Assembly: GCA_016180945.1 (NCBI GenBank)
Contig: JACPAG010000003.1
Coordinates: 107,394-171,393 of the forward strand
Reading direction: 5' to 3'
Length of the DNA stretch: 64,000 bases
Source of the DNA: Candidatus Aenigmatarchaeota archaeon
Lineage (GTDB): Archaea; Aenigmatarchaeota; Aenigmatarchaeia; GW2011-AR5
In this document: in pieces, positions 15,123-61,985 of the stretch
Layout of the letters: each line of letters starts with the position of its first letter
Numbering within the stretch: the first letter of the stretch is position 1
Translations under genes and position numbers: made by a program
The notes under the pieces: generated by a model
The model's input: the letters and a program-made list of their open reading frames with translations, nothing else
Databases searched by the model: none
What the model was told of the DNA's origin: nothing

Positions 15123-15178
15123 ATTAAGTTGAACTGTGGCGGTAAATAATTAGTGCTGGTCATCCGCTCTCTGTAAAA

Positions 15179-15547: not shown

Positions 15548-15603
15548 TTAATCACCTATAATTAAACATTACTTTAGCATACATTTTAATATTCTTGAAA
15601 TAG

Positions 15604-16746: not shown

Positions 16747-16786
16747 TAGACATCAAAATAAAAAACTTTTGTATAATTATATTACT

Positions 16787-17737: not shown

Positions 17738-17845
17738 GAATTTTATTTAAGCTTTCTTTATCCTTGTCACAAGATTAATTTACACTTGTAGTAAGAATTA
17801 CAGAGAAAATAAGAAGAATGTAAAAATAATAAAACTAACGCTTTT

Positions 17846-18007: not shown

Positions 18008-18082
18008 TTTTACCACCTCTTTTGTTTATAGCCCTCTACATATAGGGTATGTAAAAAAGAAAATAATGACAGTGCTTTCACC

Positions 18083-19399
18083 TCATTTTTCCGCCTTTAA
18101 CATCTCAATCCAGTTCTTCATTCTTTCAAATTTCTCTAAAAGTTCCTCTTCATCGGCTGGATTCCTGCCGCCGCTTATGGTAACTTTTGCCTCTTTCATG
18201 CCCGTCTTTTTCAGCTTTTCGTTAGCCACGTAATCGAAAAATCTCTTCTGGTAATTTCTGTCCTGTTTCAGCATAAAATCGCCCATCGTTTCTTTCATTT
18301 CTTTGATGGCGAGCTCCCTCTCTCTTTTCTTCTCGTCCAGTATGAGACCACAGCGACCACAGAAATCTACAGTGGCAGGGTTCTGCATCCTGCATCTGAT
18401 ACATACTTTCGGTTTTAATTTTGACTTTTCTTTTTCCGTTTCCTCTTTCTTTATGCCGTATACGTTGAGCAGCGCATTATCAACGTCCCTGCCTGACAGA
18501 TGAACGTAAGTGGCTGCCTGACTTGAACGCTGCGTCCATCCGAATATTTCCTTAAGCTGTGCTTCTGTCAGCTTGTTCGCCAGCTCTGTTGCTCTGGAAT
18601 GCCTGAACAGATGCGGGTGTATCTTCTTTTTTATCCCAGCCTTCTCGCCTAGATTTTTCAGCATCATGGCTATTGCGCCGTAGCTCATCATTTTGTTCTT
18701 GTTCTTTGTGCCGATGCCCAGCCACAGAAAAGCGTCTGGATTGTCTTTCTCTGGATGGATGCTGACCCATGACCACAAAGAAGGAGATGATGCGATTAAT
18801 CTAACCCTTCTGTCGCCTGTCTTTCCGCTGACATGGATAACTGCCCCGTATTCGTCTGATTCGAGATTTTTCAATTTCAGCGTTGCCATCTCTCCGATTC
18901 TGCAACCAGATTCGTACAAACAGAAAACCAGTGCTTTATCTCTGGGATGGTCTGCGACATTAACCATCGTTATTATTTCGTCCTGCGTGAGCATGTCGTC
19001 TGGAAGCTTGTGGCTGTTGTTTCTTAACGTGGCTTTCAGCCATCTGACTTCTGGCGGATATTCATCGCTTTTTCTCAGCCATCTGTAAAATCTTTTGCAG
19101 ATTACACGGTAATCTTTTTTCGTGTAGTCCGCAAGAGGAGAAGTTTCTATAGTCCTGAAAATTCTTTCAATGCCTTCCCTGTCAGCATCTTCAAAATCCT
19201 TTTTGACAAGCTCGGAAATTTTTTTCAGGTGAGAAATATATTTTATGACTCTTGCCCTGCTGAGACCTTCAGAAAAAAGATAATCGCAGAATTTCAGGAT
19301 TGTTTTTTTATTCTGTTCCGAAGTTTTAAAATTGCCGATTCTTTTCAGCGTGGATTTCAGTCCCTGCTCGTAATTATGGAAATCCACTTTCACGCCCAT
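18083..19399 (-). CDS. tyrosine recombinase / integrase (XerC/D-like) with C-terminal zinc-ribbon extension
   Basis: Catalytic blocks SGCRIGEMATLK (Arg), HPHLFRHSRATELA (H-x-x-R) and AATYVHL (Tyr). Extra C-terminal CIRCRMQNPATVDFCGRCG, then a helical tail. Confidence 0.85.
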   Translation of the reverse strand: MGVKVDFHNYEQGLKSTLKRIGNFKTSEQNKKTILKFCDYLFSEGLSRARVIKYISHLKKISELVKKDFEDADREGIERIFRTIETSPLADYTKKDYRVICKRFYRWLRKSDEYPPEVRWLKATLRNNSHKLPDDMLTQDEIITMVNVADHPRDKALVFCLYESGCRIGEMATLKLKNLESDEYGAVIHVSGKTGDRRVRLIASSPSLWSWVSIHPEKDNPDAFLWLGIGTKNKNKMMSYGAIAMMLKNLGEKAGIKKKIHPHLFRHSRATELANKLTEAQLKEIFGWTQRSSQAATYVHLSGRDVDNALLNVYGIKKEETEKEKSKLKPKVCIRCRMQNPATVDFCGRCGLILDEKKRERELAIKEMKETMGDFMLKQDRNYQKRFFDYVANEKLKKTGMKEAKVTISGGRNPADEEELLEKFERMKNWIEMLKAEK

Positions 19400-19452
19400 A
19401 GATTATTTATGCCCCGCCTAGTATTTAAAGGCGGAGCATCTCGATTGCATTT

Positions 19453-19471
19453 GAATGCTCCCTAGGGGAAG
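19453..19471 (+). repeat. putative attR core
   Basis: 18/19 identity with 7476-7494. Preceded by the hairpin GGAGCAT...ATGCTCC. Confidence 0.5.
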
Positions 19472-19625
19472 TTCCCAGCTTTTCCGCCAGCGCTTTTCAG
19501 CAGAAAAGGGCTGTTTTGAACCCCTGTTTCAAGCTGCTTCCGTTTCTTTCCAGGGTTTCTTCCTAAGAAAGCCTCGAGAAGCTCGCATCCTTGACCGGAC
19601 TAGACGAAGGGAGCTTTCTAATTAA

Positions 19626-19754
19626 TACCACACATACCACCAATCTTTAGATGGTGGTAGTATCAGTGGTATGTGGAGTGTAAAAAACACTGCTATAGTA
19701 TCAGTGGCATCAGATCTAATAGATGTCACTGCATTTATGCAGTGGTTTTTCACA
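19626..19754 (+). repeat. family-B nested-hairpin element, copy 1
   Basis: Upstream hairpin CCACATACC...GGTATGTGG, then outer stem TGTAAAAAACACTGC (19679-19693) / GCAGTGGTTTTTCACA (19739-19754) enclosing an inner hairpin. The same frame occurs at 25210-25287. Confidence 0.6.
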
Positions 19755-19804
19755 AAATTGTCAAATCTTTATACACAAAAAGACTATAAATACAGGATTG
19801 TGGT

Positions 19805-20440
19805 ATGGCACCCGGTTCAAAAATAACACAGCAAGAGGTATGGGGCTCAATAGCCGAGCCATGGCACCGGGCAAGAACAAGAATGTATGACGACCTGAAG
19901 GAGTTTCTAAGAAACAACACCGGCAGAAATTTTGTGCTGGATTTGGGCTGCGGCTCCGGCCGCAGTTTTATGGCAGGCAAAAAATACGTAGGCGTGGATT
20001 TTTCTGAAAATATGTTAAGGCATGCGAAACAGAATGCAGAGAAAAATGGAATAGAAGCTCACTTGGTTAAGGCTGATGTATGCCACCTGCCTTTCAAATC
20101 AAATTCATTCAATACGGCCCTGCTTGTTGCCACCCTCCATTCAATGGAAGACCGTGCCATGTGCTTGGAAGAAATGAAAAGGGTTATGGAAAAAGGCAGC
20201 GAAGCCTTCGTAACCGTCTGGAACAAAAACCAGCCAAGATTTTTAATGTCAAAAAAAGAAAGCTATGTGCCTTGGAAAGTAAGCGGCAAGATTTATTGGA
20301 GATATTATTATCTTTTTGCCGAAGGGGAATTAAGAAAACTTCTCTCCGCCTACTTTAACGTCAAAAAAATATACGGCGGCAGGGAGAGGGTTTTAAAGTT
20401 ATTCCCGAAGAATATTATCGCTATCGTGAAGAAGATGTGA
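19805..20440 (+). CDS. class I SAM-dependent methyltransferase
   Basis: Motif I VLDLGCGSGR, then a post-I acidic residue and Methyltransf_11-like layout. Confidence 0.8.
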   Translation: MAPGSKITQQEVWGSIAEPWHRARTRMYDDLKEFLRNNTGRNFVLDLGCGSGRSFMAGKKYVGVDFSENMLRHAKQNAEKNGIEAHLVKADVCHLPFKSNSFNTALLVATLHSMEDRAMCLEEMKRVMEKGSEAFVTVWNKNQPRFLMSKKESYVPWKVSGKIYWRYYYLFAEGELRKLLSAYFNVKKIYGGRERVLKLFPKNIIAIVKKM

Positions 20441-20475
20441 TTTTCCAGTTTTTTAGCCTATATTTAGAGATTCAT

Positions 20476-20578
20476 GCGGGGGTACCCAAGTGGCCAAAGG
20501 GGCTAGATATCTGAAAATAGGCCATGCTTAGGACCTAGTGGCTTAGTGCCTTCGCAGGTTCGAATCCTGCCTCCCGCA
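20476..20578 (+). tRNA. tRNA-Leu (anticodon TAG) with a 19-nt intron at position 30/31
   Basis: GCGGGGG-TA-CCC-AAGTGGCCAAA-GGG-G-CTAG[ATATCTGAAAATAGGCCAT]G-CTTAGGA-CCTAG-TGGCTTAGTGCCTTC-GCAGG-TTCGAAT-CCTGC-CTCCCGC-A. The long variable arm indicates a class II tRNA. Confidence 0.8.
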
Positions 20579-20603
20579 TTTTTAAGACTTATGGATAAAA
20601 TAG

Positions 20604-20696
20604 CTTTGTTGAAAAAGTCGTGTGCATCTGTTTGATGCACACATACGGGTAACCCATTGGCGTCAAAACAGCCAATGGGTTTCTTTTTCAACAAAG
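20604..20696 (+). repeat. nested hairpin element between the two tRNA-Leu genes
   Basis: 14-bp outer stem CTTTGTTGAAAAAG / CTTTTTCAACAAAG encloses two perfect hairpins (GTGTGCATC...GATGCACAC and AACCCATTGGC...GCCAATGGGTT). Flanked by GGATAAAAT direct repeats. Confidence 0.6.
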
Positions 20697-20717
20697 CAGG
20701 ATAAAATGTATCAAGTC

Positions 20718-20836
20718 GCGAGAGTAGCCAAGTCAGCCCGGCATCTTAGAAGATGCCGTTCCTTGATTGGTCAAAGGCGCAAGGTTCAGGGCCTTGTCCC
20801 TTAGTGGGTTCGTCGGTTCAAATCCGGCCTCTCGCA
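20718..20836 (+). tRNA. tRNA-Leu (anticodon CAG) with a ~35-nt intron in the D-loop
   Basis: GCGAGAG-TA-GCC-AAGT[CAGCCCGGCATCTTAGAAGATGCCGTTCCTTGATT]GGTCAAA-GGC-G-CAAGG-TTCAGGG-CCTTG-TCCCTTAGTGGGTTC-GTCGG-TTCAAAT-CCGGC-CTCTCGC-A. Without the insert the D-loop (AAGTGGTCAAA) matches that of the neighbouring tRNA-Leu. Confidence 0.8.
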
Positions 20837-20838
20837 TC

Positions 20839-20993
20839 AATTATCGGATTTCCGTGAAGAAAATAATTTTCTTCAGGATGCCAAAGAACTTTTAGTTCTT
20901 TGAGCATGAACCTCGGTTCATCTTCGGCTGAGCGAAGCTCGCCGAGACCTCAAAGAAGCTCTGCTTCTTTGCAGGAATCCGGCCCTTCGCATC
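20839..20993 (+). repeat. hairpin array bracketed by a duplicated tRNA-Leu(CAG) 3' end
   Basis: AATCCGGCCTCTCGCATC (20821-20838, tRNA 3' end) recurs as AATCCGGCCCTTCGCATC (20976-20993). The 137 bp between them are consecutive hairpins. Confidence 0.55.
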
Positions 20994-21035: not shown

Positions 21036-21452
21036 ATGTACCGAAAAGGAGTTCTTGGAATAGTAATAGACAAACGCAAGAGATTTCTTATTCTGTGCCG
21101 TGTCCTTCACTGGCGCGGCTGGGAATTCCCGAAAGGCGGCATAGATAAAGGCGAGACCGCCGAAGAAGCGCTGCTTAGGGAAGTAAAAGAAGAAACCGGG
21201 CTGGATGCAAAAATTATCTGCAGAATGCCATACGTAATTACTTATGATTACCCTGAAAGTTTCATAAAAAAGACAAAAACAAAATATGCCGGTGCAAAGC
21301 AGACGGTCTATCTTCTTTTAGCTGGCGGCAGTGTAAAGTTGTCCAAAGAACACAAAAAATTCAGGTGGGCCTCTTACAAGCAGGCAAGAAAGCTGTTGAA
21401 ACACGAAAGCCAGAAGAAAGCTCTTGATGCCGCTTACCAGTATGTTATCTAA
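21036..21452 (+). CDS. Nudix hydrolase
   Basis: Nudix box GGIDKGETAEEALLREVKEETGL. Confidence 0.85.
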   Translation: MYRKGVLGIVIDKRKRFLILCRVLHWRGWEFPKGGIDKGETAEEALLREVKEETGLDAKIICRMPYVITYDYPESFIKKTKTKYAGAKQTVYLLLAGGSVKLSKEHKKFRWASYKQARKLLKHESQKKALDAAYQYVI

Positions 21453-21566
21453 GAAGACATTGAAAACTGCCGTCTTTAGACGGCAGATGAAATACAATGT
21501 CTTCTGGATCCCATCTTCTCACAAACCACCGACTTTAGTCGGTGGTATATAAAGAAGATGTGATTT
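21447..21566 (+). repeat. family-A modular nested-hairpin element, copy 1 (120 nt)
   Basis: Frame ATCTAAGAAGACATTG...CAATGTCTTCTGGATCCCATCTTCTCAC...ACCACCGACTTTAGTCGGTGGT...AAGAAGATGTGATT, with one extra hairpin (CTGCCGTCTTTAGACGGCAG). Its TAA supplies the Nudix gene stop codon. Confidence 0.8.
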
Positions 21567-23443: not shown

Positions 23444-23446
23444 AAT

Positions 23447-23536
23447 TATCTAAGAAGACATTGAAAATGTCTTCTGGATCCCATCTTCTCACAAACCACC
23501 GACTTTAGTCGGTGGTATAATAAGGAAGATGTGATT
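23447..23536 (+). repeat. family-A element, copy 2 (minimal 90-nt frame)
   Basis: TATCTAAGAAGACATT-GAA-AATGTCTTCT-GGATCCCATCTTCTCACAA-ACCACCGACTTTAGTCGGTGGT-ATAATAAGGAAGATGTGATT. Fills the spacer between the methyltransferase start and the lysS stop. Confidence 0.8.
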
Positions 23537-25162: not shown

Positions 25163-25287
25163 ATCTGGCATTCCACTGTTTTAAAACAGCGGTGGAGTGG
25201 AATGCTGGCTGTAAAAAACACTGCATTAATATCCGTGGCTTCAGTAATCGTAAAGAAGCCACTGCCTTTAGGCAGTGGTTTTTCACA
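25163..25287 (+). repeat. family-B nested-hairpin element, copy 2
   Basis: Upstream hairpin CTGGCATTCCAC...GTGGAATGCTGG, then TGTAAAAAACACTGC (25210-25224) / GCAGTGGTTTTTCACA (25272-25287) enclosing GTGGCTTC...GAAGCCAC and CACTGCCTTTAGGCAGTG. Confidence 0.6.
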
Positions 25288-27036: not shown

Positions 27037-27150
27037 AAATAGGTATCAAAATAATATGGCAATCAACTTGCGAAGTGTAGCGACCAAACCTTACAAACGA
27101 ATGCCATAAGAATTCGTTACATCGAAGAACCGTTTACGGTTCTTCGAATG

Positions 27151-31555: not shown

Positions 31556-31589
31556 AAAGAAGTATTGACAGTACCCTTTAGTCCATATC

Positions 31590-31877
31590 ATCTAAGAAGA
31601 CATTGAAAACTCCTACCTTTAGGTAGGAGATGCAAGCAAAAGCAAAGCTTTTGCTGCACAGAAAGACCTGAAGGGTCTTTCTTGTGAAATACAATGCAAG
31701 CAGAAAGCAAAGCTTTCTGATGCTACAGAAAACAAGGTTTTCTGTATGTCTTCTGGATCCCATCTTCTCACACAAGAAGGAACCGTGTTCCTTCTGTGCA
31801 GACAACGAAGAACCTTTTGTTCTTCGATGTCTTGCAAACCACCGACTTTAGTCGGTGGTATACAAAGAAGATGTGAT
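31590..31877 (+). repeat. family-A element, copy 3 (expanded, 288 nt)
   Basis: Same frame as the other copies, plus seven additional perfect hairpins: five inside helix 1 and two inside helix 2. Confidence 0.8.
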
Positions 31878-32732: not shown

Positions 32733-32767
32733 ATGGTTCTGATGGTGAGAAACCGCAGGTGTCTTAT

Positions 32768-33985
32768 ATGTGGTGGGAGAGTCCAGGGCATCTTGATGTG
32801 AAGAACGGCCGGCTTTACATAGCCGGCATGTCCGCCATTGACATAGCCAACAAATTCAAAACGCCATTGTATGTTTATGATGGAAATCGTATCATGGATA
32901 TTTACAGAAAATTCTACAGTACAGTAAAGAAGCATACAGATTTAGAAGTCCGTCTGCATTATGCAATGAAAACCAATTCGAACAGAAAAATCCTTCAACT
33001 GCTTCTTAAAGAAGGCGCGTGGATAGACGCCGTTTCGCCGGAAGAGTGCAAAGCGGCTTTGGAAGCCGGCTTCCTGAAAGAAAAAATACTGTTCACAGGC
33101 ACTAGTGTTAGCAGCGAGGACATGAAACAGCTCGTCGGCATGGATGTAAGAATTAATATCGATTCATTGTCGCAGCTAAAGAGACTCGGTAAAATAACAA
33201 CAGATGCGGAAATCTCGCTGCGAATGGACCCCGGCATAGCCGGAGCCGGCCACAGCTGGCGGACAATGACAGCCGGCAAAGAGTCGCATGGCGTGCCGAT
33301 AAAATTTTCTATCCCCGAAAACCAAATAGTGGAAGCTGCAAAGCTAGCAAAGGATTACGGCTTTAACGTAGTAGGCCTCCACGAACACATAGGCTCTGGA
33401 TGGCGTACCAGTGAAGAGGTAAACGAGTTTCTGCAAACAGTTGATATAGTATTGGACAAAGCAAAGCAGATAAGCGAGTTCTGCAATTTAGAGTTCATAA
33501 ACTTCGGCGGCGGGCCCGGCGTTAGGTACCAGGAAAACCATCCGGAATTTCCTTTAGAAAGATATGCAGAGGAAACATGCAGAAAAGTAAAAGAGTCTGG
33601 AGTTGAAATAAATGCGTTATGTTTCGAGCCCGGACGATATATTGTTGCTGATTCAGGTCTGCTGTTAGTCGAAGTAGTCGACGTAAAGGAAAGATACGGC
33701 GACATCATAGCCGGCGTCAACAGCGGCTTCAACCATCTTATTCGTCCCGTAATGTACGGCTCTTACCACGAGATAATAAACTGCTCTAAAGCGGACGCAA
33801 AACCAGAAGCAGAAGTAACGGTAGCCGGAAACCTATGCGAAACCGGCGACGTATTCGCAGCAAAAAGGATGATGCCGATGCCGGAAGAAGGCGACGTTCT
33901 TGCCATACACAGCGCAGGCGCATACGGTTTTACGATGGCATCGCGATACAATATGCGAAGCCTGCCGAAGGAAGTTTTGTTGTAA
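32768..33985 (+). CDS. lysA: diaminopimelate decarboxylase
   Basis: HYAMKTNSN (PLP Lys), HEHIGSG and EPGRYIVADSG. The ATG at 32768 follows the shared leader GAGAAACCGCAGGTGTCTTAT. Confidence 0.9.
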   Translation: MWWESPGHLDVKNGRLYIAGMSAIDIANKFKTPLYVYDGNRIMDIYRKFYSTVKKHTDLEVRLHYAMKTNSNRKILQLLLKEGAWIDAVSPEECKAALEAGFLKEKILFTGTSVSSEDMKQLVGMDVRINIDSLSQLKRLGKITTDAEISLRMDPGIAGAGHSWRTMTAGKESHGVPIKFSIPENQIVEAAKLAKDYGFNVVGLHEHIGSGWRTSEEVNEFLQTVDIVLDKAKQISEFCNLEFINFGGGPGVRYQENHPEFPLERYAEETCRKVKESGVEINALCFEPGRYIVADSGLLLVEVVDVKERYGDIIAGVNSGFNHLIRPVMYGSYHEIINCSKADAKPEAEVTVAGNLCETGDVFAAKRMMPMPEEGDVLAIHSAGAYGFTMASRYNMRSLPKEVLL

Positions 33986-46772: not shown

Positions 46773-46798
46773 TTATCTTATCCCCAAAGTTTTTGTTT

Positions 46799-47039
46799 AT
46801 CTAAGATGAACATTGAAAACCATGGTCTTTAGGCCATGGATAAAATACAATGTTCATCTGGATCCCATCTTCTCACACAAGAAGGAACCGTGTTCCTTCT
46901 GTGCAGACAACGAAGAACCTTTTGTTCTTCGATGTCTTGCAAACCACCGACTTTCCGTCAGAAACCAGAGGTTTCTGCGGAATTCAGGAAAGCTCTGCTC
47001 TCCGTGAATTAGTCGGTGATATATAAGGAAGATGTGATT
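46799..47039 (+). repeat. family-A element, copy 4 (241 nt)
   Basis: Helix 1 is changed on both arms (GATGAACATTG / CAATGTTCATC). Carries a 56-nt two-hairpin insert inside the CTTTAG loop (46954-47009). Confidence 0.8.
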
Positions 47040-47840: not shown

Positions 47841-48419
47841 ATGACAAGATATATAAATCGTACTTCCTATACATTACTTATGGCAGCGGCAATAAACTTC
47901 GACCGTATCTTCTTCCACCGACGTCATTACGGCGTTATGCTGTCCGTGATATTTCTCGTTCTGTTAGTCGGGCTGGCCATGCTTTACCAGTACCAGAGAC
48001 CAAAGCATCAAGCGTCGCAAGACACCCCCTCAATCAGCAGAGAGGAAGCTGAAAACATAAAAATGCAGCAATACGGCGGTAATAAACCACAGCGCATTGA
48101 TTTGCCCAGTTTTTCTGCTGCTTCTTTATGCAAAGAATTTGGTAACATTTCAAGTGAAATTAGCTGCGAAAAGGCCGCAGAGGCTGCCCTGATAAATTAT
48201 AGCGGGGATATTTTATCTATAAGCAAAAAGGAGAATTCTATAGTTGGCATATCGCGCAACGGGTCTACGGCGCAAATCAAAAGCACCATCTGGATTATCC
48301 AGATGAATTTGTACGAGTCCAAGGAAGTAAAACTGCCGGATGGCAGCTCAGAGTTCAGGTATAGGGCATCTATAGCAGTCGATGCCAAAAAAGGTAACGC
48401 ATATCTGTATGGTGTTTGA
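47841..48419 (+). CDS. membrane-anchored hypothetical protein
   Basis: 192 aa. One TM span (VMLSVIFLVLLVGLAMLY) and a ~130-aa ectodomain. Its stop overlaps the start of the next gene. Confidence 0.45.
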   Translation: MTRYINRTSYTLLMAAAINFDRIFFHRRHYGVMLSVIFLVLLVGLAMLYQYQRPKHQASQDTPSISREEAENIKMQQYGGNKPQRIDLPSFSAASLCKEFGNISSEISCEKAAEAALINYSGDILSISKKENSIVGISRNGSTAQIKSTIWIIQMNLYESKEVKLPDGSSEFRYRASIAVDAKKGNAYLYGV

Positions 48420-48424
48420 TAAGT

Positions 48425-50584
48425 ATGAAAATACATTCTTTTGTTTTTCCTGTAGCAATGTTGGCTTTCTTGATTGTCAACACTGGCATTTCATTGGCAA
48501 GCGTTTGTTACGGGCCTGTTGATGGGTGCTATGCCTCTGGGGTTTGTAGTAGCAATTGTGATGCGTGGTGTCAAGGTCAGGGATATACAGGGGGTGCATG
48601 CCAAGGTTCAACATCTTCCTGTGGTGACACGAATTATCCTGAATCATGCAATTGTTATAATAGTCTGACATGCCCTGCCAGCTGCAGCGCAACTTCCGCA
48701 GCATGCAATCCAACGCCGTCATGCTGGACATGCACGAGCGATAACAGTTACACCAATTGGATAGGCGACGCAGCCTGTGATGATTTCTGCGGCGAAACCT
48801 CAGGTCCTGGTTCATGTCATTCTGCTGCATGCGTGACATCAACTACAACCTCAACATCTACGAGTACAAGCACCAGTACTTCCACATCTACCAGCACTTC
48901 TACTTCCACCACCTCTACGTCCACCTCGACATCAACATCCACTTCAACATCAACAAGCACATCGACATCAACGAGCACTACTAGTACTTCAACATCCACC
49001 ACCTCAACCTCCACAAGCACTTCAACCAGCACGACGACTACGGCGCCTGGAGGTTGCCCGGCACCTACAATTCGCGATTTCTCTCATACGGAGAACACCT
49101 TGCTTATAGCACTTAACAAAGTGTCTCAGGCAGACCATTACGAGGCTCAATGGTGCATGAACGAGCACGGCGTATCCTCTTTCACCGATCCTCTATGCTG
49201 TAGCAATCCTAATGGTTGCTCCAAAACCGTTGCAGTTGGAAGCTCTCCTTGGGATGTGACCGTTCCTGCATACCATCATATTGATATAGAAAACTATGTT
49301 GATACGTCATCAACACCAAATGCACTTTTCTCGAAAACGAAATATAACATGCGGGTAAGGTCGATATGTGGCACCTTGCAAAGTGGATGGACGCCAGCGG
49401 ACAATGACTGGCTTGGTTGCACCGTTTTGGGCTTCTGCTACGGCACAGGAGATACGACATGCTCGAATCTAGTGAAGACAGGAACCCCATCCTCAGAGTC
49501 TGTACAATTTGGCCCACCTGGTTCGTGTTCTGTTAGCGTCGCACCATACGCGCAGAAAACAGGCGCGCCAATAGGCGCATATGGAAATACTTTCGTATCT
49601 ACATCAGGCGTCTTAACCGTGAAAAAATTTGAATTTGACGATCAGGACGGCGGAAGCTGCGACATAGACTACGGATTTACAAATAGTTGGTCAAAACCGC
49701 AGACAGACTGGCTAGACGTGCATGCAAAAGTCTACAGGAAAGACGGCGGCAGCAATCAGCAGGAAATAGGCTTCAGGGTATGGACGATATCATCAAACTG
49801 TGGAATAAGGAAATGGAACGGAGTAACTTCAACTTGGGGAGACTGCCTATCAACAACTGACCTGTCAAAATTATCGCCAAACGCCGTTCCTGGAAACGAC
49901 ATAGGCTCGACTTATAACATAGAATATTGCGGCGACGGGACTGTAACCAGCGGCTTGGCAGGCTGCACTGCATCGGGAGTTAACGAGATCTGCGACCCGC
50001 CTGGGAGCTGGCGCGGAACTTGCAGCGTGGGGAATACAAGAACAGAGGACCAGTGCAACAGCGCCTGCACTGGAAATGCTGATACGAACTCCTGTGAATC
50101 AGACTGTGGAGCCGAAGTTGCATGCGATGAAAAGAACATAGGAGATCTGTGTATAACTGGAAACGGGGATAATGGAACGTGTACTAGCTTATGCGAATGT
50201 AGGGCTAGCTGCACTAGAAATGCAGACTGTGGTGCAGGCAGATGCTGCCTTGGTCATACAGCGCCGCCAGAAGCCGCTGGACCTCTATACGGAACAGGAG
50301 ACCGGGCTGCTGCCACTTGTGTTAGCAAACAGGTGTATGCTGCAAATTCCGCTTATCTCTGCGACCCTGGAACATGGATTGTATGCGACGAAAGCAAAGT
50401 AGGTATCAAGAAGGAATTTGATAATCGTGTTTTCGTTTGTATCAAAGAAAACGAAACTTACAAATGGATTGAAACGACAGCCACTCAGTTACCGCAGCCA
50501 ACCAAAAGCGAAGAATTTGTTATAGATTTGCCGAATATCTTCTCAGAGATAATAAAGCTGTTCGCAATGATGTTTGTACTCTAA
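48425..50584 (+). CDS. large secreted Cys-rich protein with (Thr-Ser)n linker
   Basis: Signal peptide MKIHSFVFPVAMLAFLIVNTGISLASV, a ~110-aa Cys-rich head, a ~65-aa TSTSTS linker, then a ~500-aa Cys-containing body. Confidence 0.7.
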   Translation: MKIHSFVFPVAMLAFLIVNTGISLASVCYGPVDGCYASGVCSSNCDAWCQGQGYTGGACQGSTSSCGDTNYPESCNCYNSLTCPASCSATSAACNPTPSCWTCTSDNSYTNWIGDAACDDFCGETSGPGSCHSAACVTSTTTSTSTSTSTSTSTSTSTSTSTTSTSTSTSTSTSTSTSTSTSTSTTSTSTSTTSTSTSTSTSTTTTAPGGCPAPTIRDFSHTENTLLIALNKVSQADHYEAQWCMNEHGVSSFTDPLCCSNPNGCSKTVAVGSSPWDVTVPAYHHIDIENYVDTSSTPNALFSKTKYNMRVRSICGTLQSGWTPADNDWLGCTVLGFCYGTGDTTCSNLVKTGTPSSESVQFGPPGSCSVSVAPYAQKTGAPIGAYGNTFVSTSGVLTVKKFEFDDQDGGSCDIDYGFTNSWSKPQTDWLDVHAKVYRKDGGSNQQEIGFRVWTISSNCGIRKWNGVTSTWGDCLSTTDLSKLSPNAVPGNDIGSTYNIEYCGDGTVTSGLAGCTASGVNEICDPPGSWRGTCSVGNTRTEDQCNSACTGNADTNSCESDCGAEVACDEKNIGDLCITGNGDNGTCTSLCECRASCTRNADCGAGRCCLGHTAPPEAAGPLYGTGDRAAATCVSKQVYAANSAYLCDPGTWIVCDESKVGIKKEFDNRVFVCIKENETYKWIETTATQLPQPTKSEEFVIDLPNIFSEIIKLFAMMFVL

Positions 50585-53913: not shown

Positions 53914-56880
53914 ATGCGTATATCGGCAATCTTAATAGTTGTTACAATATTTGCAGTCTTGTTATCTAACACTTCTTATGCCGCTTTAGCTGATGCTTGG
54001 AATATTTGTAAGTCATCAGCTAGTGCCTGTCCTGATACAAATACGCGCGACTACGCAGTAGGGTGCTTTTACAATGACCCACAAGATACAGTAGACTCAT
54101 ACTGTTGCTCATATCCGAATACCGATGACCTAACGAGTCCTGCTGCCTCGACGTATATACCTTATAAATGGAAACTTGGTGGTGCAACGCAAGGTGCCGG
54201 CTGCAGCTGCGCAGTTGATGACGGCTTCGTCATCCCGAATACTGGCGTCTGGCATTACGCAGACGAATCAAGCGGAGGCAGCAGAAAAGGTGTCCACAGC
54301 CCTCGTCCAGACGACTCCTATACATTCTACGAAACGCCACATAGATATTCTAGATACATGTCATGCGGCGAAAGCGGCTTGTTTACATGCCCTGCAGGAA
54401 GCACTGGCATAAAATTCTGGGTTAGGGCTCAGACAGAAAATGGCCCAGACAAGTTAGAAATTAAAAACAGTGCCGGCACAGTTTATGCAACTTTGACTGG
54501 TCAATATGATCCAGATGGTGACGATGACGTTACCGAATACTTTTCGACAGACGTTTATCCGCAAACCACAGCAAAATTCCTATTCACCTCTGATGTGAGC
54601 TATCAAACCTGGGGCGTTGATGTTTATGGCATAAAGTGCATGGGAGGGGATTCCACATCCACCAGCACATCAACATCTACTTCAACAAGCACTAGTACTT
54701 CCACTTCAACTTCTACGTCCACCAGCACGTCATCAACATCCACAAGCACCTCAACATCTACGTCCAGCACAAGTACTTCATCCACCAGCACATCCACTTC
54801 AACAAGTACTTCAACGTCAACCACAAGTACAAGCACGTCTACAACCACAACCATCCCTTGCGTCCATGCGAATCCTTCTGTGACTATAACCCCTTCGCCG
54901 CAGAATGACGTAGCCGGCTCGGCGCTGGCATATACCGTCGCGGTGACAAACAACGATGCAAGCTGCGGCTCGGAAACGTACAGCTTACGCAGTTCAGGAA
55001 CAGCCTGCACCGCTCCCTGGTCCTGCTCATTAGCTTCATCGTTGGGGCCAATTGCATCAGGCTCTTCTGGTTCGACTGCAATAACCGTTACATCGCCTGC
55101 CGCTGCTGCCACAGGCAGCTACCTATTTTCAGTGACCGCCTCTATTGCATCGCCTGCACATACAGGAACCGGCTCTGCAACTTACGTAGTCAGCGACTTT
55201 AGTGTTGTCGCAACATCAGCCATTTTTGTAACAAAGCCGCAGACCGTCTCAAGGGACGGCACAGGCACGATAACCGTAGGCTCTGTCAACAGCTTTAGTT
55301 CGCCTGTAGCGCTGTCTGGAGCCTGGTTTGATTTAATCGGTAATCCTATTGCAGCCCCGTCTGGTGTTTCAACAACCTATAATCCTTTATCAGTTACCCC
55401 ATCTGCCGGCGGCTCGGCTGCATCAACATTGACAATTACCGTTCCATCAACAGCCGCTACAGGAACATTTATTCTCAGGACAACAGGCACTCGGAACAGT
55501 ACAACACACGCGTTTGATACGAAGGTTATTATAAGCTCTTACGGTCTGGAATTTAAGCCGAAAAGCAAGACCTACGTAGGTAACGATTATGTCTGGGGTG
55601 ACGGTGATGTGGACAAATGCGACCTCCCTGATGCTGGAAAATGTATAAACGTGACAGACAAATCCGAACTTCCCGGTAATCCGCAGATAACATATGGCAT
55701 TGCATCCAAAACCCGCACCGGAGCATGTGATGCCGCCAACACAGACATATTTGACGCTGACGGCGTGGTCGTAACCCAGTTCAAAATCCAGAAAGGCACT
55801 ACAATAACCAATCCTTTCAACATAAGGGTCAAGGCAACGGACGATACGTTCTGCACGCTTTCATTCAAAGTAGTCGCCCCTGACAGCGCCGAAGTCGACC
55901 CAAGCTTCACCGTTAACCCTGCTGGTCCGCTGCCGCCTCCTGGCCCTGTCGGGATGAGTATAGAAGTCAAGTACCCGTTCGCCGAGAAGAAGCTTATACC
56001 GCTGACTGGCGGAAAGCCGGATTTCACCAAATCAATGCCTATAGGGTTTTTAATAAAGGCAAGGTCACTTGACCTGCTGCCAGTAGACTGCACCTTTGAT
56101 AACTGCGAGGTCAAATACGGCATAAAGGAAAAAGACGGCACGCCGGCCGTTCCGGACGGCGCAGTTTTCCCTGCGTGCGCCGGCAACGAGTATAAACCCG
56201 GCCAGTGCGCAGCCTTTGACAAGTTCACGCCCATAGGCCCTGCATGGAAGGCCCAGCGGCCGAGCAAAGACCTGTTAAGCGGCGTTATAGACCTGGCATG
56301 CGATGCTGATTATACGCTTGTTATAAAAACCAGAATAACATCCGGCCTTGGTGTCGGCGCATCCGGCTCGCTGGAAACGCCAATCCACATAAACTGCAGG
56401 CCGCGCTTAACGGTCGACCCGCCTGAAAAATCTGTCGTTTTGAACCAAAATAACGCAGATGCCTTCACGGTAACCGTCTGGGACCCCCAGACAAGAACTT
56501 ATGCATTGGGCATGACAAATGCAAAACCAGAGCATACATTCCTGGCAGGCGCCGACAGGTGGATAGAATTTGTATGTCCTTCGGCTCCTGTATCATGCAG
56601 CGCGGATAAGCTTCAATTAAGCGGCATACAATCCGGCAGCGAAACGCCTCCGCAGTTTACCGTCCGCCTTACAACCAAAGCAGCGGTAAGGGCCGGCAAC
56701 TTCCCGGTGCGCTTCACAGCATCGGCGACAGGCATCACGCCTGCCGAAACAGAAGCGACAATCAAGGTCTTTGCCGAAGGCCTCAATGAATTCGCATTAT
56801 GGCAGCTGGCTGTACTTGTTATTCTGAGCACAGCATTTGTTTACAGGCAGAGCATTGGAAAAAAGCGGAATAGTACCTAA
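53914..56880 (+). CDS. giant cell-surface protein (signal peptide, Cys-rich head, CUB-like segment, TS linker, Ig-like repeats, C-terminal TM anchor)
   Basis: 988 aa. N-terminal signal ILIVVTIFAVLLSNTSYA. KFLFTSDVSYQTWGVDVYGIKC resembles the end of a CUB domain. ~65-aa TSTSTS linker. C-terminal anchor LAVLVILSTAFVY followed by basic residues. Confidence 0.7.
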   Translation: MRISAILIVVTIFAVLLSNTSYAALADAWNICKSSASACPDTNTRDYAVGCFYNDPQDTVDSYCCSYPNTDDLTSPAASTYIPYKWKLGGATQGAGCSCAVDDGFVIPNTGVWHYADESSGGSRKGVHSPRPDDSYTFYETPHRYSRYMSCGESGLFTCPAGSTGIKFWVRAQTENGPDKLEIKNSAGTVYATLTGQYDPDGDDDVTEYFSTDVYPQTTAKFLFTSDVSYQTWGVDVYGIKCMGGDSTSTSTSTSTSTSTSTSTSTSTSTSTSSTSTSTSTSTSSTSTSSTSTSTSTSTSTSTTSTSTSTTTTIPCVHANPSVTITPSPQNDVAGSALAYTVAVTNNDASCGSETYSLRSSGTACTAPWSCSLASSLGPIASGSSGSTAITVTSPAAAATGSYLFSVTASIASPAHTGTGSATYVVSDFSVVATSAIFVTKPQTVSRDGTGTITVGSVNSFSSPVALSGAWFDLIGNPIAAPSGVSTTYNPLSVTPSAGGSAASTLTITVPSTAATGTFILRTTGTRNSTTHAFDTKVIISSYGLEFKPKSKTYVGNDYVWGDGDVDKCDLPDAGKCINVTDKSELPGNPQITYGIASKTRTGACDAANTDIFDADGVVVTQFKIQKGTTITNPFNIRVKATDDTFCTLSFKVVAPDSAEVDPSFTVNPAGPLPPPGPVGMSIEVKYPFAEKKLIPLTGGKPDFTKSMPIGFLIKARSLDLLPVDCTFDNCEVKYGIKEKDGTPAVPDGAVFPACAGNEYKPGQCAAFDKFTPIGPAWKAQRPSKDLLSGVIDLACDADYTLVIKTRITSGLGVGASGSLETPIHINCRPRLTVDPPEKSVVLNQNNADAFTVTVWDPQTRTYALGMTNAKPEHTFLAGADRWIEFVCPSAPVSCSADKLQLSGIQSGSETPPQFTVRLTTKAAVRAGNFPVRFTASATGITPAETEATIKVFAEGLNEFALWQLAVLVILSTAFVYRQSIGKKRNST

Positions 56881-59867: not shown

Positions 59868-59879
59868 TTCGGCTTACTT

Positions 59880-60160
59880 ATCTTAGATTCATTGAAAACA
59901 CACGACTTTAGTCGTGTGATGCAAGCAGAAGCTTCGCTTCTGCTGCACAGAAAGACTCCTAGAGTCTTTCTTGTGAAACACAATGAATCTGGGATCCCAT
60001 CTTCCAACACAAGAAGGAACTATGTTCCTTCTGTGCCGAAGGACTCATAGAGTCCTTCGTGCAAACCACCGACTTTCCGTCAGAAACCAGAGGTTTCTGC
60101 GGAATTCAGGAGAGCTCTGCTCTCCGTGAATTAGTCGGTGGATATAAGGAAGATGTGATT
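59880..60160 (+). repeat. family-A element, copy 5 (281 nt)
   Basis: Helix 1 is changed on both arms (AGATTCATTG / CAATGAATCT). Same 56-nt loop insert as copy 4 (60076-60131). Five additional hairpins. Confidence 0.8.
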
Positions 60161-60912: not shown

Positions 60913-61007
60913 TTTTTTTTCAAAAATTTTATATGGGAGCAGGTCAATATAATTACTACTGGTTATGCGGGAAATGAAACCGCAGCTATTATGAGGGAAG
61001 TTGATAA

Positions 61008-61121
61008 GAAACCGTAGGTGTCTTATATGCACTGCAGATTCAGTAAAGGGAAATGAATGAGAAACCGTAGGTGTCTTATATGCACTGCAGATTCAGTAAA
61101 GGGAAGTAGGTGTCTTATATG
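61008..61121 (+). repeat. 53-bp tandem duplication of an SD-ATG leader, creating twin 9-codon uORFs
   Basis: GAAACCGTAGGTGTCTTATATGCACTGCAGATTCAGTAAAGGGAA occurs twice (period 53). uORFs 61027-61056 and 61080-61109 both encode MHCRFSKGK. A third partial unit supplies the ATG at 61119 of the downstream gene. Confidence 0.85.
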
Positions 61122-61985
61122 TACAGGCACATGGTAAAGAAGTTCGGCAACATAGGCATCAGGTACATGCCAAGCTATGTCGAGCCGCTCAAGGCGGAAC
61201 TCTCGAAAGCAAACCTCGGCATTTTGTTCGAAATTTATGTCGGCAGGATGCTCTTCGTTTCTTTTGCGTCTTTCATCGTTACGTTTTCCGTTGTCTTTGC
61301 TATATCGCTTGTTTTCACCCTCCCGTTGATGATAGCCCTCTTCAGCGGCCTGATAGCAGCGGCAACAATTGCGCTTATAGTGTTAACCTTGTACCACTCT
61401 TATCCGTTTCAGCTGCTGACAACAAAGAAGAATATGATAGACACAAACATGCCCTTTGCAATAAACCACATGGCGGCTATCGCATCCGCAGGCGTCCCGC
61501 CTTTCGTCATATTCAGGCTGCTTGGGGATATCAAGGAATACGGAGAAATCAGGCACGAGGCAAAAAGAATTGTCAGGAACATAGAAGTTTTTGGCATGGA
61601 CCTGACGACAGCCATCCAGAACGTTGCGGAAAGAACGCCTTCCGACACCTTCCGCCAGTTCTTGTACGGCATCGTTTCTACCATAAACACAGGAGGCGAC
61701 CTGAAGAAGTTTTTCGAAAATTCTGCAAAAGACGCATTGTTCGATTACCGTCTGAAAAGGGAAAAGTATATGAAGACGCTGGAAACATACGCGGACTTTT
61801 ATACTGCCGTCCTCATCGCCGCTCCTTTGTTTTTCATATCCATACTCGCCGTCATGGCGCTTATCGGCGGCAATGTCTTCGGCCTTAGCATTCCGCTGGC
61901 AATGCGCATAGGAATATTTGTATTGATACCGCTGCTGAACACGGCATTCATAATGTTCATCCACTATACGCAGCCGAAAGTGTAA
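61119..61985 (+). CDS. type II secretion system F-domain membrane protein (TadB/ArlJ-like, N-terminal half)
   Basis: Polytopic, with a cytoplasmic helical domain (AINHMAAIASAGVPPFVIF...IEVFGMDL). Adjacent to a second F-domain gene. Confidence 0.7.
   Translation: MYRHMVKKFGNIGIRYMPSYVEPLKAELSKANLGILFEIYVGRMLFVSFASFIVTFSVVFAISLVFTLPLMIALFSGLIAAATIALIVLTLYHSYPFQLLTTKKNMIDTNMPFAINHMAAIASAGVPPFVIFRLLGDIKEYGEIRHEAKRIVRNIEVFGMDLTTAIQNVAERTPSDTFRQFLYGIVSTINTGGDLKKFFENSAKDALFDYRLKREKYMKTLETYADFYTAVLIAAPLFFISILAVMALIGGNVFGLSIPLAMRIGIFVLIPLLNTAFIMFIHYTQPKV

Follow-up and report, generated by a model that had tools for sequence, protein, structure and literature searches.

Family A, a set of short hairpin-rich repeats in Aenigmatarchaeota (DPANN archaea), defines a previously undescribed repeat family, and it is probably a non-autonomous PATE-like element of the IS200/IS605 type. 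It is a clean natural case of multi-helix covariation, and the folded form under constraint is most likely a single-stranded DNA (ssDNA) transposition intermediate rather than an RNA. We favor the ssDNA form because the copies follow a TNATCT flank without target duplication and are co-oriented by chromosome strand, not by genes, and because there is neither a conserved promoter nor an Rfam family but there is an IS200-type Y1 element with the same target and a similar left end. [quoted passage not shown] No relevant report was found in the literature on Aenigmarchaeota repeats or MITEs.

Copies, ends, and target site

The DNA studied was 64,000 nt of the forward strand of contig JACPAG010000003.1 (GCA_016180945.1; positions 107,394 to 171,393), which is called the window; coordinates below are window positions unless a contig is named. 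The core motif of family A occurs five times in the window (0.03 expected). Our collection, drawn from Aenigmatarchaeota MAGs and from metagenomes, amounted to 73 distinct sequences and 69 distinct insertion sites; the source metagenomes include SRR12113431, SRR22387835, and the Rifle samples. Family A was found across several of these MAGs and in groundwater metagenomes, and copies that share a MAG were near-identical to each other. Overall the elements were 64 to 392 nt long, with lengths quantized at about 118, 171, 224, and 283 nt. They are too short for a transposase gene, and the open reading frames (ORFs) that cross them are spurious. In viral contigs the core pattern had zero matches; a looser hairpin pattern had ten, which we rejected because all were within coding sequence and their number was about that expected by chance.

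Each element consists of two abutting stem-loop domains plus optional two-hairpin cassettes of about 53 nt, which sit at fixed positions and number up to four per element. Such cassettes also occur outside family A within the same genome. Besides copy 4, the window copies are as follows.

21451..21564, + strand: copy 1, the basic 114-nt form, with target TTATCT at 21445-21450
23452..23535, + strand: copy 2, a short form whose helix 1 is no more than a simple hairpin, with target TTATCT at 23446-23451
31594..31877, + strand: copy 3, a long form with three cassettes and target TCATCT at 31588-31593
59884..60159, + strand: copy 5, a long form with helix 1 AGATTCATTG/CAATGAATCT and target TTATCT at 59878-59883

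Copy 1 occupies the gap between convergent NUDIX and GT2 genes, with the NUDIX stop codon lying across the junction; copy 2 is between two minus-strand genes (encoding a methyltransferase and LysRS), and copy 3 is between the aminotransferase and dapF genes. The parts of copy 4 are given below with the evidence for each.

46797..46802, + strand: target motif TTATCT (TAM-like), from the motif at 69 sites and the empty site in a relative, L141
46803..47038, + strand: element body, 236 nt, from AAGATGAAC... to ...GAAGATGTGAT (sequence, DNA fold, covariance-model match)
46804..46815, + strand: helix 1 5' arm, AGATGAACATTG (sequence, fold)
46820..46839, + strand: inner left hairpin, CCATGGTC-TTTA-GGCCATGG (sequence; covariation in 6 of 7 pairs)
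46848..46859, + strand: helix 1 3' arm, CAATGTTCATCT (sequence, fold)
46862..46872, + strand: helix 2 (P2) 5' arm, ATCCCATCTTC, the sequence-conserved core (core-motif count, covariation)
46877..46937, + strand: optional two-hairpin cassette of domain 2 (bounds approximate)
46941..47019, + strand: right subterminal hairpin, CCACCGAC...GTCGGTGA (bounds approximate; repeat D9, fold)
47028..47038, + strand: helix 2 (P2) 3' arm, GAAGATGTGAT, forming the element's right end (TEM-like GTGAT)

The TTATCT that flanks copy 4 is most likely preexisting target DNA outside the mobile segment. The inner left hairpin is a candidate for the subterminal hairpin at which the transposase would bind the left end. 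The domain 2 cassette, which is present in copies 3 to 5 and absent from copies 1 and 2, reads CAAGAAGGAAC-CGT-GTTCCTTCTGTG and then CAGACAACGAAGAAC-CTTTT-GTTCTTCGATGTCTTG in copy 4. A second two-hairpin cassette interrupts the TTTA loop of the copy 4 right hairpin, whose repeat D9 is common to copy 5.

Across the 69 distinct sites, the left-junction motif was TNATCT, the successive positions being T (69), T, C, or G (52, 14, and 3), A (67), T (69), C (68), and T or C (66 and 3). At the right, elements always ended in ...GAAGATG-N-GAT, with the final GAT in 69 of 69 sites. There was no sequence conservation upstream of the target motif or beyond the right end at these sites, and no TSD, since TNATCT never recurred after the 3' end. 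TIRs are also absent: the 5' end is (A/T)AGA..., the 3' end is ...GAAGATGTGAT, and the reverse complement of the latter, ATCACATCTTC, is unmatched at the 5' end. Without TIRs and TSDs, family A is not a MITE. Sixteen nucleotides separate the left hairpin from its junction, and 18 to 19 nt separate the right hairpin from the end. The two are alike, with 7- to 8-bp stems and a C-TTYA-G loop (examples are CACACGAC-TTTA-GTCGTGTG and CCCACGAC-TTTA-GTCGTGGG). On contig L102 (10707-10770) there is a 59-nt "terminal-only" copy, joined through these two similar hairpins. "Terminal-only" derivatives fused through palindromes have been described for haloarchaeal PATEs (PMC3119063).

Perfect hairpins of ≥9 bp are numerous in the window, with 28 found versus about 1 expected, and many of them are not within family A.

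Paired changes in the helices

The initial annotation had proposed that the two arms of helix 1 changed together so that pairing stayed perfect, and this is true of all five window copies, which carry the versions AGAAGACATTG, AGATGAACATTG, and AGATTCATTG. In copy 4 the helix has 12 bp with arms separated by 32 nt; in copy 5, AGATTCATTG (59885-59894) and CAATGAATCT (59981-59990) have 86 nt between them. One helix 1 form had been assigned to copies 1 to 3, and that description needs amending. It fits copy 1, with AGAAGACATTG at 21452-21462 and CAATGTCTTCT at 21495-21505, but copy 2 has the minimal hairpin AGAAGACAT-TGAAA-ATGTCTTCT, without CAATG. The arms of copy 3 are indeed complementary, but its 3' arm is split by a cassette into CAATG (31693-31697) and ATGTCTTCT (31746-31754). 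Helix 2 had been described as unchanged, and ATCCCATCTTC/GAAGATGTGAT is identical in 5 of 5 window copies. The alternative pairing between AGAAGA and TCTTCT tracts is, as suggested, possible in copies 1 to 3 and gone from copies 4 and 5.

The further suggestion that the fold with helices 1 and 2 is the preserved single-stranded form is supported by a sample of 30 distinct basic copies of family A, all from genomes other than that of the window. Shuffles and slid partners served as controls. Among the 30 copies, 97.1% of the paired cells were base paired, compared to 79.5% after shuffling and 31 to 45% with slid partners. Two-sided changes were found in 23 of 39 pairs (2 to 9 with slid partners): 10 of 13 pairs in helix 1, 6 of 7 in the inner hairpin, 2 of 11 in P2, and 5 of 8 in the right hairpin. 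Thus, in place of the contrary pattern that had been named, one-arm changes as frequent as two-arm changes, two-sided changes were vastly commoner. At least 11 versions of helix 1, perfectly paired, were present in the collected copies, and P2 covaried with its partner arm in L077 and L121 (CATGTTC/GAACATG). As DNA, copy 4 folds at −61.1 kcal/mol (z = −11.6). The hairpin structure and the paired changes of family A are far above chance.

One-sided changes were evenly divided, 12 G.T and 12 A.C, so they look like random decay after insertion.

Compensated arms could in principle arise mechanically, by intrastrand template switching at quasi-palindromes or by mismatch repair in a folded strand. 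The stems are near perfect (97% paired, 7 to 13 bp), and some helix 1 differences are complex multibase changes (AGA-AGACATTG versus AGATGAACATTG) mirrored exactly in the opposite arm, as such a process would leave them; the 28 perfect hairpins in the window, many beyond family A, also fit it. But the helix 1 arms are 32 to 142 nt apart and enclose other hairpins, which makes them a poor substrate for snap-back, and uncorrected one-sided changes occur. Mechanical correction also leaves unexplained the conserved unpaired junctions, the invariant P2 sequence and the conserved C.T mismatch in it, and the fixed positions of the cassettes. We consider this origin highly unlikely.

Strong covariation in four helices is one point in favor of RNA. 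Family A could be primarily a structured noncoding RNA that is carried on a mobile unit or spreads as one, with a regulatory, protein-scaffolding, or transposon guide-type role and with selection on the RNA fold. Its conserved junctions and loops (GAAAAC, GATGAAAYA, YMACAAACC, and TATAYAAG) are consistent with this, as are the optional arms, which have fixed positions and their own compensated changes, typical of large functional RNAs. In addition, the + strand folds slightly better as RNA than the − strand (better in 46 copies versus 22; mean difference, −1.4 kcal/mol; P = 0.02). However, A.C was as frequent as G.T among one-sided changes, so tolerance of G.U on one strand was not seen; a functional RNA strand was not supported by this count, and the energy difference between strands is small. 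Most of the hairpins are perfect palindromes with 3- to 4-nt loops and are strand symmetric. The upstream flanks are unconserved, and hence family A has no promoter there. Rfam offered no match even at E ≤ 10 apart from miRNA- and snoRNA-type hairpin families for copies 1 and 4, which we rejected as chance matches (9 to 29 bits versus gathering thresholds of 40 to 107); at the gathering threshold, Rfam 15 had a single match in the window, to a tRNA. H/ACA, C/D (K-turn), and hammerhead motifs, compared by eye with the internal loops, did not fit and were without Rfam support. Together with the orientation and partner data below, these results make an RNA unlikely to be the form selected. Family A is a reason for caution in covariation-based discovery of RNA motifs in metagenomes.

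Empty sites, orientation, and gene context

Relatives lack family A at orthologous sites at protein identities of 68 to 88%, so individual copies are not conserved. The site of copy 3 is empty in L141, L140, L047, and L049. In L141, whose DapF is 86% identical, there is a 70-nt spacer in which TTATCT aligns to the left junction of copy 3; that the target motif predates insertion rests on this one informative empty site. The alignment of the L140 right flank starts directly after the ...GATGTG(AT) of copy 3. L047 and L049, at about 70% identity, are too divergent to fix the element boundaries. At the copy 4 site, the same two genes are 27 nt apart in L144, a relative at 85% identity, versus 305 nt in the window; the element is absent from both L144 and L142, and the junction there is not clean. 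Short-read contigs of the same strain yielded no usable empty site, since every one of them breaks at a family A element. Family A fragments Aenigmatarchaeota assemblies.

All five window copies are on the + strand although the neighboring genes are on mixed strands, and 2 of the 5 are antisense inside minus-strand gene pairs. Across contigs, adjacent family A pairs were co-oriented in 19 cases and opposite in 3 (13 versus 3 without the pairs <1 kb apart). On a 433-kb AR5 contig the orientations were +, +, and then −, a single switch. GC skew was uninformative about the direction of replication. The gene contexts, with E for the element, were >E> in 19 cases, >E< in 15, <E< in 10, and <E> in 9. 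That orientation tracks the chromosome strand rather than the adjacent genes is a further point against the RNA interpretation.

Family A is strictly intergenic and frequently abuts stop codons or fills the gaps between convergent genes. This would suit a host-domesticated repeat of the REP/BIME or BOX kind, spread by a domesticated Y1 enzyme and serving the cell in transcript end formation, mRNA stabilization, protein binding, or as a portable TATA-like promoter. The modular composition is also in its favor, as is the TATAYAAG situated 11 nt short of the right end, with TTTATATA on the opposite strand, and Y1 enzymes are associated with REPs (PMC3333891). TATAYAAG was rejected as a promoter; downstream genes are close, but distances on the upstream side are just as short, so the proximity is nonspecific. 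Against domestication are the empty orthologous sites in relatives and the representation of all four gene configurations. Moreover, the Y1 gene described below belongs to a mobile IS that is inserted in several contexts, unlike a single-copy RAYT with repeats on both sides. A domesticated repeat is therefore quite improbable.

A tnpA-only IS200-type element and known systems

Contig L102, which carries the terminal-only copy, has an ORF at 11064-11492 that is a Y1_Tnp of 142 aa (PF01797; E = 2e-30). It also has a 5'-truncated family A copy with the GGATCC core and without the helix 1 5' arm. This truncated copy and a homologous flanking ORF are found in L013 too, a contig of MAG RIFCSPLOWO2_01_FULL_48_10, which is the richest in family A copies. 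From five contexts we defined the element as an IS200-type element of about 590 nt with tnpA only. Its left flank is TTATCT at 2 of 4 independent sites (the others are ATTTCT or TTTCCT), and its right end, ...GACGTCAT, terminates in GTCAT. At the left end, GACCGA pairs with TCGGTC in an outer helix that encloses a C-TTCA-G hairpin, and GATGAA follows, as it does in family A domain 1. In L159/L160 the element has TTATCT directly on one side and a remnant of family A directly on the other.

The IS and family A thus have in common the TTATCT target, a 16- to 18-nt linker, an outer helix, the C-TTYA-G hairpin (the loop of the inner left hairpin recurs in the hairpins of the L102 element), GATGAA, and a terminal GT(C/G)AT. 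The likeness is one of motifs and architecture only: there is no alignable homology between the ends of the two, and the family A covariance model had no match to the IS left end at E ≤ 10⁻⁴. The 4 to 5 nt just 5' of the hairpins, which are the "guide" positions in IS608, differ between the IS200-type element and family A, and no convincing scheme of IS608-style guide/target base pairing was found for TNATCT or GTGAT. No tnpA was found in the 64-kb window, and among family A copies only those in L102/L159 adjoin one. ORF clusters from 139 loci consisted of housekeeping families and spurious ORFs across family A, giving no neighbor-protein partner. A crude regular expression for TnpB-like zinc ribbons matched genes for RNA polymerase and tRNA synthetases and nothing else. 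The associated IS has neither tnpB nor iscB, which leaves family A without a known RNA-guided partner and also counts against a family A RNA. The 114-nt mini-element and the 590-nt tnpA-only element, both sizes approximate, with TTATCT common to both, form a testable pairing.

In the mechanism that we propose, the top (+) strand would be excised and reinserted as ssDNA by a Y1 (HUH) TnpA acting in trans, presumably of the L102 type. Insertion would always be 3' of T-N-A-T-C-T and without target duplication. It would prefer one replication strand, the relevant strand perhaps being the lagging-strand template, and neighboring copies would therefore share an orientation. Once single stranded, the element would fold as two neighboring domains, in each of which an outer helix (helix 1 at the left, helix 2/P2 at the right) encloses a C-TTYA-G hairpin, and this fold would draw both cleavage junctions close together. 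Transposition would be limited to copies still able to fold, and thus the fold would be kept. Because copies that do not fold could not transpose, spreading lineages would carry compensated arm changes, whereas changes after insertion would be random. We infer that helix 1, beyond the inner hairpin alone, is required for transposition.

IS200/IS605 elements insert 3' of a 4- to 5-nt target, have subterminal hairpins but no TIRs or TSDs, and favor the lagging-strand template (PMC5027513). As in IS608 and ISDra2, the left end of family A is 3' of a specific short target (TNATCT; TTAC for IS608) (PMC5027513). Family A also resembles IS200/IS605 elements in having subterminal hairpins about 16 to 19 nt from the ends, in being strand specific, in its co-oriented neighbors, as lagging-strand targeting predicts, and in its link, through the copy-rich MAG, to the L102 Y1 TnpA with HUH and Tyr motifs. 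Unlike those elements, it encodes nothing and has no demonstrated guide/target pairing, and its outer helices and modular arms depart from the paradigm. IS200/IS605 ends are not known to require an outer helix that sequesters the linker beside the cleavage site, and we know of none that carries as many as ten optional hairpin arms, each in a fixed place. Arms of this sort are more commonly a mark of functional RNAs.

There is a small chance that family A is more than a passive PATE and that its architecture, with two coaxial outer helices that would draw the cleavage junctions together, evolves like that of a functional nucleic acid. Under this reading, either the cassettes may be separate ultrasmall mobile hairpin modules that nest in defined sites, analogous to haloarchaeal SMR-A but much smaller, or family A may specify a structured cofactor, RNA or DNA and so far undescribed, that serves an IS200 system with tnpA only in DPANN archaea. 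Should the outer helices or two-hairpin cassettes prove functional, they would broaden what is known of the substrates that Y1 transposases accept.

Under the PATE-like assignment, which we prefer, the nearest known systems are haloarchaeal PATEs and the PATE-like elements described in Geobacillus stearothermophilus, all of them non-autonomous IS200/IS605 derivatives (PMC3119063, PMC10055086). Like them, family A is noncoding, lacks TIRs and target duplication, and has a short fixed targeting sequence at its 5' junction. Also shared are near-terminal palindromes similar at both ends, terminal-only deletion derivatives between the palindromes, many near-identical copies per genome, and other small elements inserted into them. 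Family A differs in several respects. Its basic form is much smaller (about 114 nt), each subterminal hairpin is within an 11- to 12-bp outer helix, the domains directly abut, and there are up to four cassettes of about 53 nt at fixed positions. With a full-length IS it shares sequence only at the level of motifs. It lives in a DPANN archaeon whose genome is small, which raises the question of how elements like family A are tolerated and spread in very small DPANN genomes. Some PATEs of other organisms encode omega RNAs, a point for the RNA interpretation (PMC10055086), but none is expected for family A because its sole candidate partner is the tnpA-only element.

Similarly to REP/BIME repeats with their RAYTs, family A consists of short, intergenic, many-copy hairpin repeats with mosaic units and a link to an HUH Y1 enzyme (PMC3333891). 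REPs are single imperfect palindromes of 20 to 40 nt with a conserved GTAG-type head, and RAYTs are single copy and REP flanked (PMC3333891). In contrast to these, the ends of family A are defined and asymmetric, its flanking target is fixed, and the Y1 gene is in a mobile IS. The BOX repeats of Streptococcus pneumoniae, modular boxA-boxB(n)-boxC units, share with family A conserved terminal modules, variable internal hairpin modules, and an intergenic, noncoding nature; they are unrelated in sequence and host domain. To our knowledge, no mobilization mechanism or fixed flanking target motif is established for BOX.

Integron attC sites are folded bottom-strand recombination sites and resemble family A in that an ssDNA fold is recognized by structure, the arms show compensated variation, and orientation is uniform. 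Unlike attC, family A has no R''/R' (RYYYAAC/GTTRRRY) boxes, cassette array, or IntI. We rejected an attC identity because the GTTRRRY/RYYYAAC ends are missing and housekeeping genes, in both orientations, flank the copies. The sole tyrosine recombinase in the window lies within a separate low-GC island.

Paired changes in the helices of family A

The hairpin-rich intergenic repeat family A has five copies in the window, part of a Candidatus Aenigmarchaeota MAG:

21445-21564, +, copy 1, intergenic
23446-23535, +, copy 2, intergenic
31588-31877, +, copy 3, intergenic
46797-47039, +, copy 4, intergenic; site of the initial annotation
59878-60159, +, copy 5, intergenic

The basic element is ~114 nt long and has two adjoining domains. 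In domain 1, the outer helix (helix 1) leads through an internal loop (in most subfamilies, GAAAAC / GATGAAAYA) to a 7- to 8-bp hairpin with a C-TTYA-G loop. Domain 2 is built from the outer helix P2 (helix 2), the internal loop YMACAAAC / TATAYAAG, and another hairpin shaped as in domain 1. The domains adjoin directly (helix 1 - G - P2), and the fold therefore places both ends of the element side by side.

As initially annotated, the arms of helix 1 are AGAAGACATTG / CAATGTCTTCT in copy 1, AGATGAACATTG (46804-46815) / CAATGTTCATCT (46848-46859) in copy 4, and AGATTCATTG / CAATGAATCT in copy 5. The same helix had been ascribed to copies 1 to 3, but copies 2 and 3 differ in detail: copy 2 lacks CAATG and is reduced to a minimal hairpin, and the 3' arm in copy 3 is split by an inserted hairpin pair. 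P2 is indeed unchanged, with ATCCCATCTTC / GAAGATGTGAT identical in 5 of 5 window copies, and copy 4 takes the fold proposed for it (−61.1 kcal/mol as DNA, z = −11.6).

An exact-pattern scan for the family A core, using one genome per species, gave 42 loci, nearly all in Aenigmatarchaeota MAGs; bearers include RIFCSPLOWO2_01_FULL_48_10, SO_2017_SWC_7, several NC_groundwater MAGs, and GW2011_AR5. Metagenomes added 90 loci, and viral contigs gave chance matches only. The 119 copies extracted represent 73 distinct sequences and 69 distinct insertion sites. Among the collected copies, helix 1 has at least 11 perfectly paired versions (for example, TGAATGCGCCT / AGGCGCATTCG, TGAAGGCGTCC / GGACGCCTTCG, TGCATTCTTCC / GGAAGAATGCG, AGAATGCATTGA / TCAATGCATTCT, and GTCGGCATTG / CAATGTCGAC).

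We counted covariation in 30 distinct basic copies, using a MAFFT alignment that was not fitted to any structure. Standard pairs occupied 97.1% of cells versus 79.5 ± 0.7% when shuffled and 31 to 45% with slid partners. Two-sided changes were found at 23 of 39 pairs versus 2 to 9 with slid partners, and one-arm changes were clearly not as frequent as two-arm changes. Covarying pairs numbered 10 of 13 in helix 1, 6 of 7 in the inner left hairpin, and 5 of 8 in the right hairpin; P2 covaries in one lineage (CATGTTC / GAACATG) and is otherwise invariant. Compensated arms might also come from purely mechanical arm-to-arm copying, which we regard as very improbable.

Even strong covariation among intergenic repeats of metagenomes does not necessarily signify RNA. 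An Rfam search with family A found no matching family, and the upstream flanks at the 69 sites contained no conserved promoter. One-sided changes within helices were divided equally between A.C (12) and G.T (12), and thus there is no G.U signature on either strand; these changes look like random mutations gained after insertion. As RNA, the + strand folded with only a slight energy advantage over the − strand, and most stems are perfect palindromes with 3- to 4-nt loops. A transcript is possible, but the Rfam, promoter, G.U, energy, and stem data lend RNA function no positive support, and we consider a function at the RNA level unlikely.

Insertion sites, orientation, and modules

At the 69 distinct sites, conservation begins abruptly at the left junction, T / [T52 C14 G3] / A / T / C / [T66 C3]. 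Every right end reads ...GAAGATG-N-GAT, with no conservation past it. Inverted termini and target duplication were sought at these sites, and neither was present.

Close relatives show copies 3 and 4 to be insertions. At the copy 3 site, the Logan contig L141 (DapF 86% identical) has a 70-nt spacer versus 355 nt in the window. Its sequence ...ccaataTTATCTttaaaac... aligns with ...ccatatcATCT|AAGAAG... of the window, and therefore TTATCT pre-existed in the target. In contig L140 (88% identity), the right flank alignment begins just past ...GATGTG(AT). At the copy 4 site, the window has 305 nt, of which a relative at 85% identity has a counterpart of just 27 nt. Relatives at ~70% identity are also without the element, and same-strain short-read contigs all end at it, as expected for a repeat.

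All five window copies are on the + strand; the neighboring genes are on both strands, and two copies are antisense, between minus-strand genes. All four gene configurations occur among the sites (>E> 19, >E< 15, <E< 10, <E> 9). Nevertheless, adjacent copies on one contig were co-oriented in 19 pairs versus opposite in 3 (binomial P ≈ 4e-4), or 13 versus 3 without pairs <1 kb apart (P ≈ 0.01). A 433-kb AR5 contig has copies at 53 kb (+), 320 kb (+), and 414 kb (−). Family A orientation therefore tracks the chromosome strand, not transcription.

The genes beside the five copies are ordinary housekeeping genes, encoding NUDIX, two GT2 glycosyltransferases, a methyltransferase, class I LysRS, an aminotransferase, DapF, a radical SAM/SPASM protein, and a KaiC-like ATPase. 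A domesticated, REP/BOX-like role for family A seems to us very doubtful. The TAA stop of the NUDIX gene (ORF 21036-21452) spans the junction of target motif and copy 1 (atC TAA gaag; 21445-21452), and the convergent GT2 gene stops 6 nt past copy 1; the insertion may have reshaped the NUDIX gene's 3' end.

Family A lengths are quantized (about 118, 171, 224, and 283 nt). The cassettes, hairpin pairs of ~53 nt, carry their own compensated differences; a copy has or lacks them at each of four fixed places:

Place 1, after GATG, domain 1
Place 2, within the helix 1 3' arm
Place 3, after YMACA, domain 2
Place 4, right hairpin loop

Partial or miniature forms also occur:

L003 3640-3690, −
L111 6581-6660, +
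L016 1715-1781, −
L023 1720-1801, −

The partial types are solo domain 2 and solo domain 1 ending in GGGATCC; minis of 66 to 82 nt have the helix 1 and P2 hairpins only. Solo domain 2 begins after TGATC and domain 2 of full copies after GGATC. Both resemble the TNATC target, which hints that each domain may originally have been a unit of its own.

The window contains 28 perfect hairpins (stem ≥9 bp, loop 3 to 4 nt) versus about 1 expected. Outside family A, such hairpins with arms of the GAAGA/TCTTC type form intergenic clusters at 2240-2410, 3287-3400, 20850-20990, 27122-27147, and 6759-6853. At 3320-3375, the cluster repeats the copy 5 domain 2 cassette in reverse complement. The cassettes may therefore be modules common to several repeat families, or may be independently mobile.

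An IS200-type element with the same target

A tblastn search of all collected DNA with Salmonella IS200 TnpA found a match in contig L102 (E = 8e-13). The ORF (11064-11492, 142 aa) has an HUH motif (HVHAEV), a Tyr motif (ENYIRKH), and a Pfam Y1_Tnp match (E = 2e-30). L102 has a 5'-truncated family A copy and a homologous flanking ORF in common with L013, a contig of RIFCSPLOWO2_01_FULL_48_10, the MAG with the most family A copies. Homologues of this TnpA (75 to 87% identity) are on many short metagenome contigs and an Aenigmatarchaeota-like MAG contig. Five compared contexts delimited the element:

L102 10919-11509 (also L155, L157-L161), IS200-type element, tnpA only, ~590 nt; candidate partner of family A

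It starts AATTCCGAGACCGAGAG... and ends ...GCCCAGAGAGGACGTCAT; at the right end (...GACGTCAT), the tnpA stop codon lies within the hairpin loop. Aenigmatarchaeota MAG contigs carry it, as do many short metagenome contigs. Of its left flanks, two from independent contexts read TTATCT, and two more read ATTTCT or TTTCCT. At the left end, an outer helix (GACCGA / TCGGTC) encloses a hairpin whose loop is C-TTCA-G; the hairpin is 18 nt away from the junction, and GATGAA follows it. This layout and the GATGAA motif are like those of family A domain 1, and the last bases, GTCAT, resemble GTGAT of family A. In L159 (84-806) and L160, the IS is bounded exactly by TTATCT on one side and a family A remnant on the other, and thus used the target motif flanking family A. 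This remnant is of the terminal-only type; its hairpin loop holds a two-hairpin cassette, and the first two expected bases (TA) are missing. A 59-nt family A copy (L102 10707-10770) has the left hairpin 5' arm fused to the right hairpin 3' arm, the same kind of terminal-only derivative as described for haloarchaeal palindrome-associated transposable elements (PATEs) (PMC3119063).

IS200/IS605 elements and PATEs, their derivatives without a protein, are defined by a fixed short left target, no terminal inverted repeats, no target duplication, similar subterminal hairpins at both ends, strand-specific orientation, insertion polymorphism, and deletion derivatives (PMC5027513, PMC3119063, PMC10055086). 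Family A shares this behavior, and an IS200-type element uses the same target; therefore, we read family A as a probable PATE-like element, which a Y1 TnpA acting in trans would mobilize as folded single-stranded DNA. Under this mechanism, compensated changes between subfamilies would be the footprint of selection for transposition competence in spreading lineages, and the rare uncompensated changes would be decay after insertion. We infer that family A is a substrate of the L102-type TnpA, that helix 1 is needed in addition to the inner hairpin, and that the favored strand is the lagging-strand template. Three points count against the PATE-like reading: no tnpA was found in the 64-kb window, the ends of family A and the IS are similar only at the level of motifs, and outer helices plus optional arms at fixed sites exceed what the IS608 paradigm needs. 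Elements of this kind are known; neither Rfam nor the literature searched describes family A, its DPANN host range, its double-helix-enclosed ends, or its modular cassettes.

Neighboring repeats and a low-GC island

A different hairpin repeat (GTGAACC...GGTTCAC, then ATACAAGG-hairpin-TGTACAGG-hairpin) often lies directly 3' of family A (L004 4415-4500, L031 880-960, L098, L102 10780-10830, L119), which suggests that small elements cluster or target one another. A second, divergent Y1 transposase-like ORF (L097 1596-2135, −; 35% identical to L102 TnpA) has a different hairpin repeat on both sides (CTGCGGGTTT...AACCCGCAG).

Window positions 8000-20000 form a low-GC island (0.34 to 0.38 versus about 0.45) that is probably an integrated element. 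It holds a Schlafen/AlbA_2 protein (7620-8789), a lectin-like protein, an adenylate/guanylate cyclase-domain protein, several ORFs with no Pfam match, and an integrase:

18083-19399, −, tyrosine recombinase (Phage_integrase)

A direct repeat of ~90 nt (80 to 83% identical) occurs at 19665-19754, adjoining the integrase island, and 5.5 kb away at 25196-25287; each copy has the hairpin CACTGC-ATTTAT/CTTTAG-GCAGTG, then GTTTTTCACA. By eye, 20470-20840 and 19400-19600 have tRNA-like acceptor and T-arm ends (for example, gcggggg...ttcgaatcctgcctcccgc and gcgagag...ttcaaatccggcctctcgc), for which ARAGORN and Rfam gave no call. A near-copy of the second 3' end, ggaatccggcccttcgca, lies at about 20975, after a hairpin cluster. 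These sequences could represent interrupted tRNA genes or duplicated att sites.

At 60994-61124, upstream of ORF 61110-61985, a 53-nt unit (AGGGAA.TGA..AGAAACCGTAGGTGTCTTATATGCACTGCAGATTCAGTAA) is repeated two and a half times in tandem, and a related 28-mer is at 32743-32770. Short degenerate repeats (CATCnACnAGCACnTCnAC) at 48837-49032 and 54656-54842, inside the large ORFs 48416-50584 and 53914-56880, are probably low-complexity Thr/Ser/Pro-rich stretches of surface proteins.
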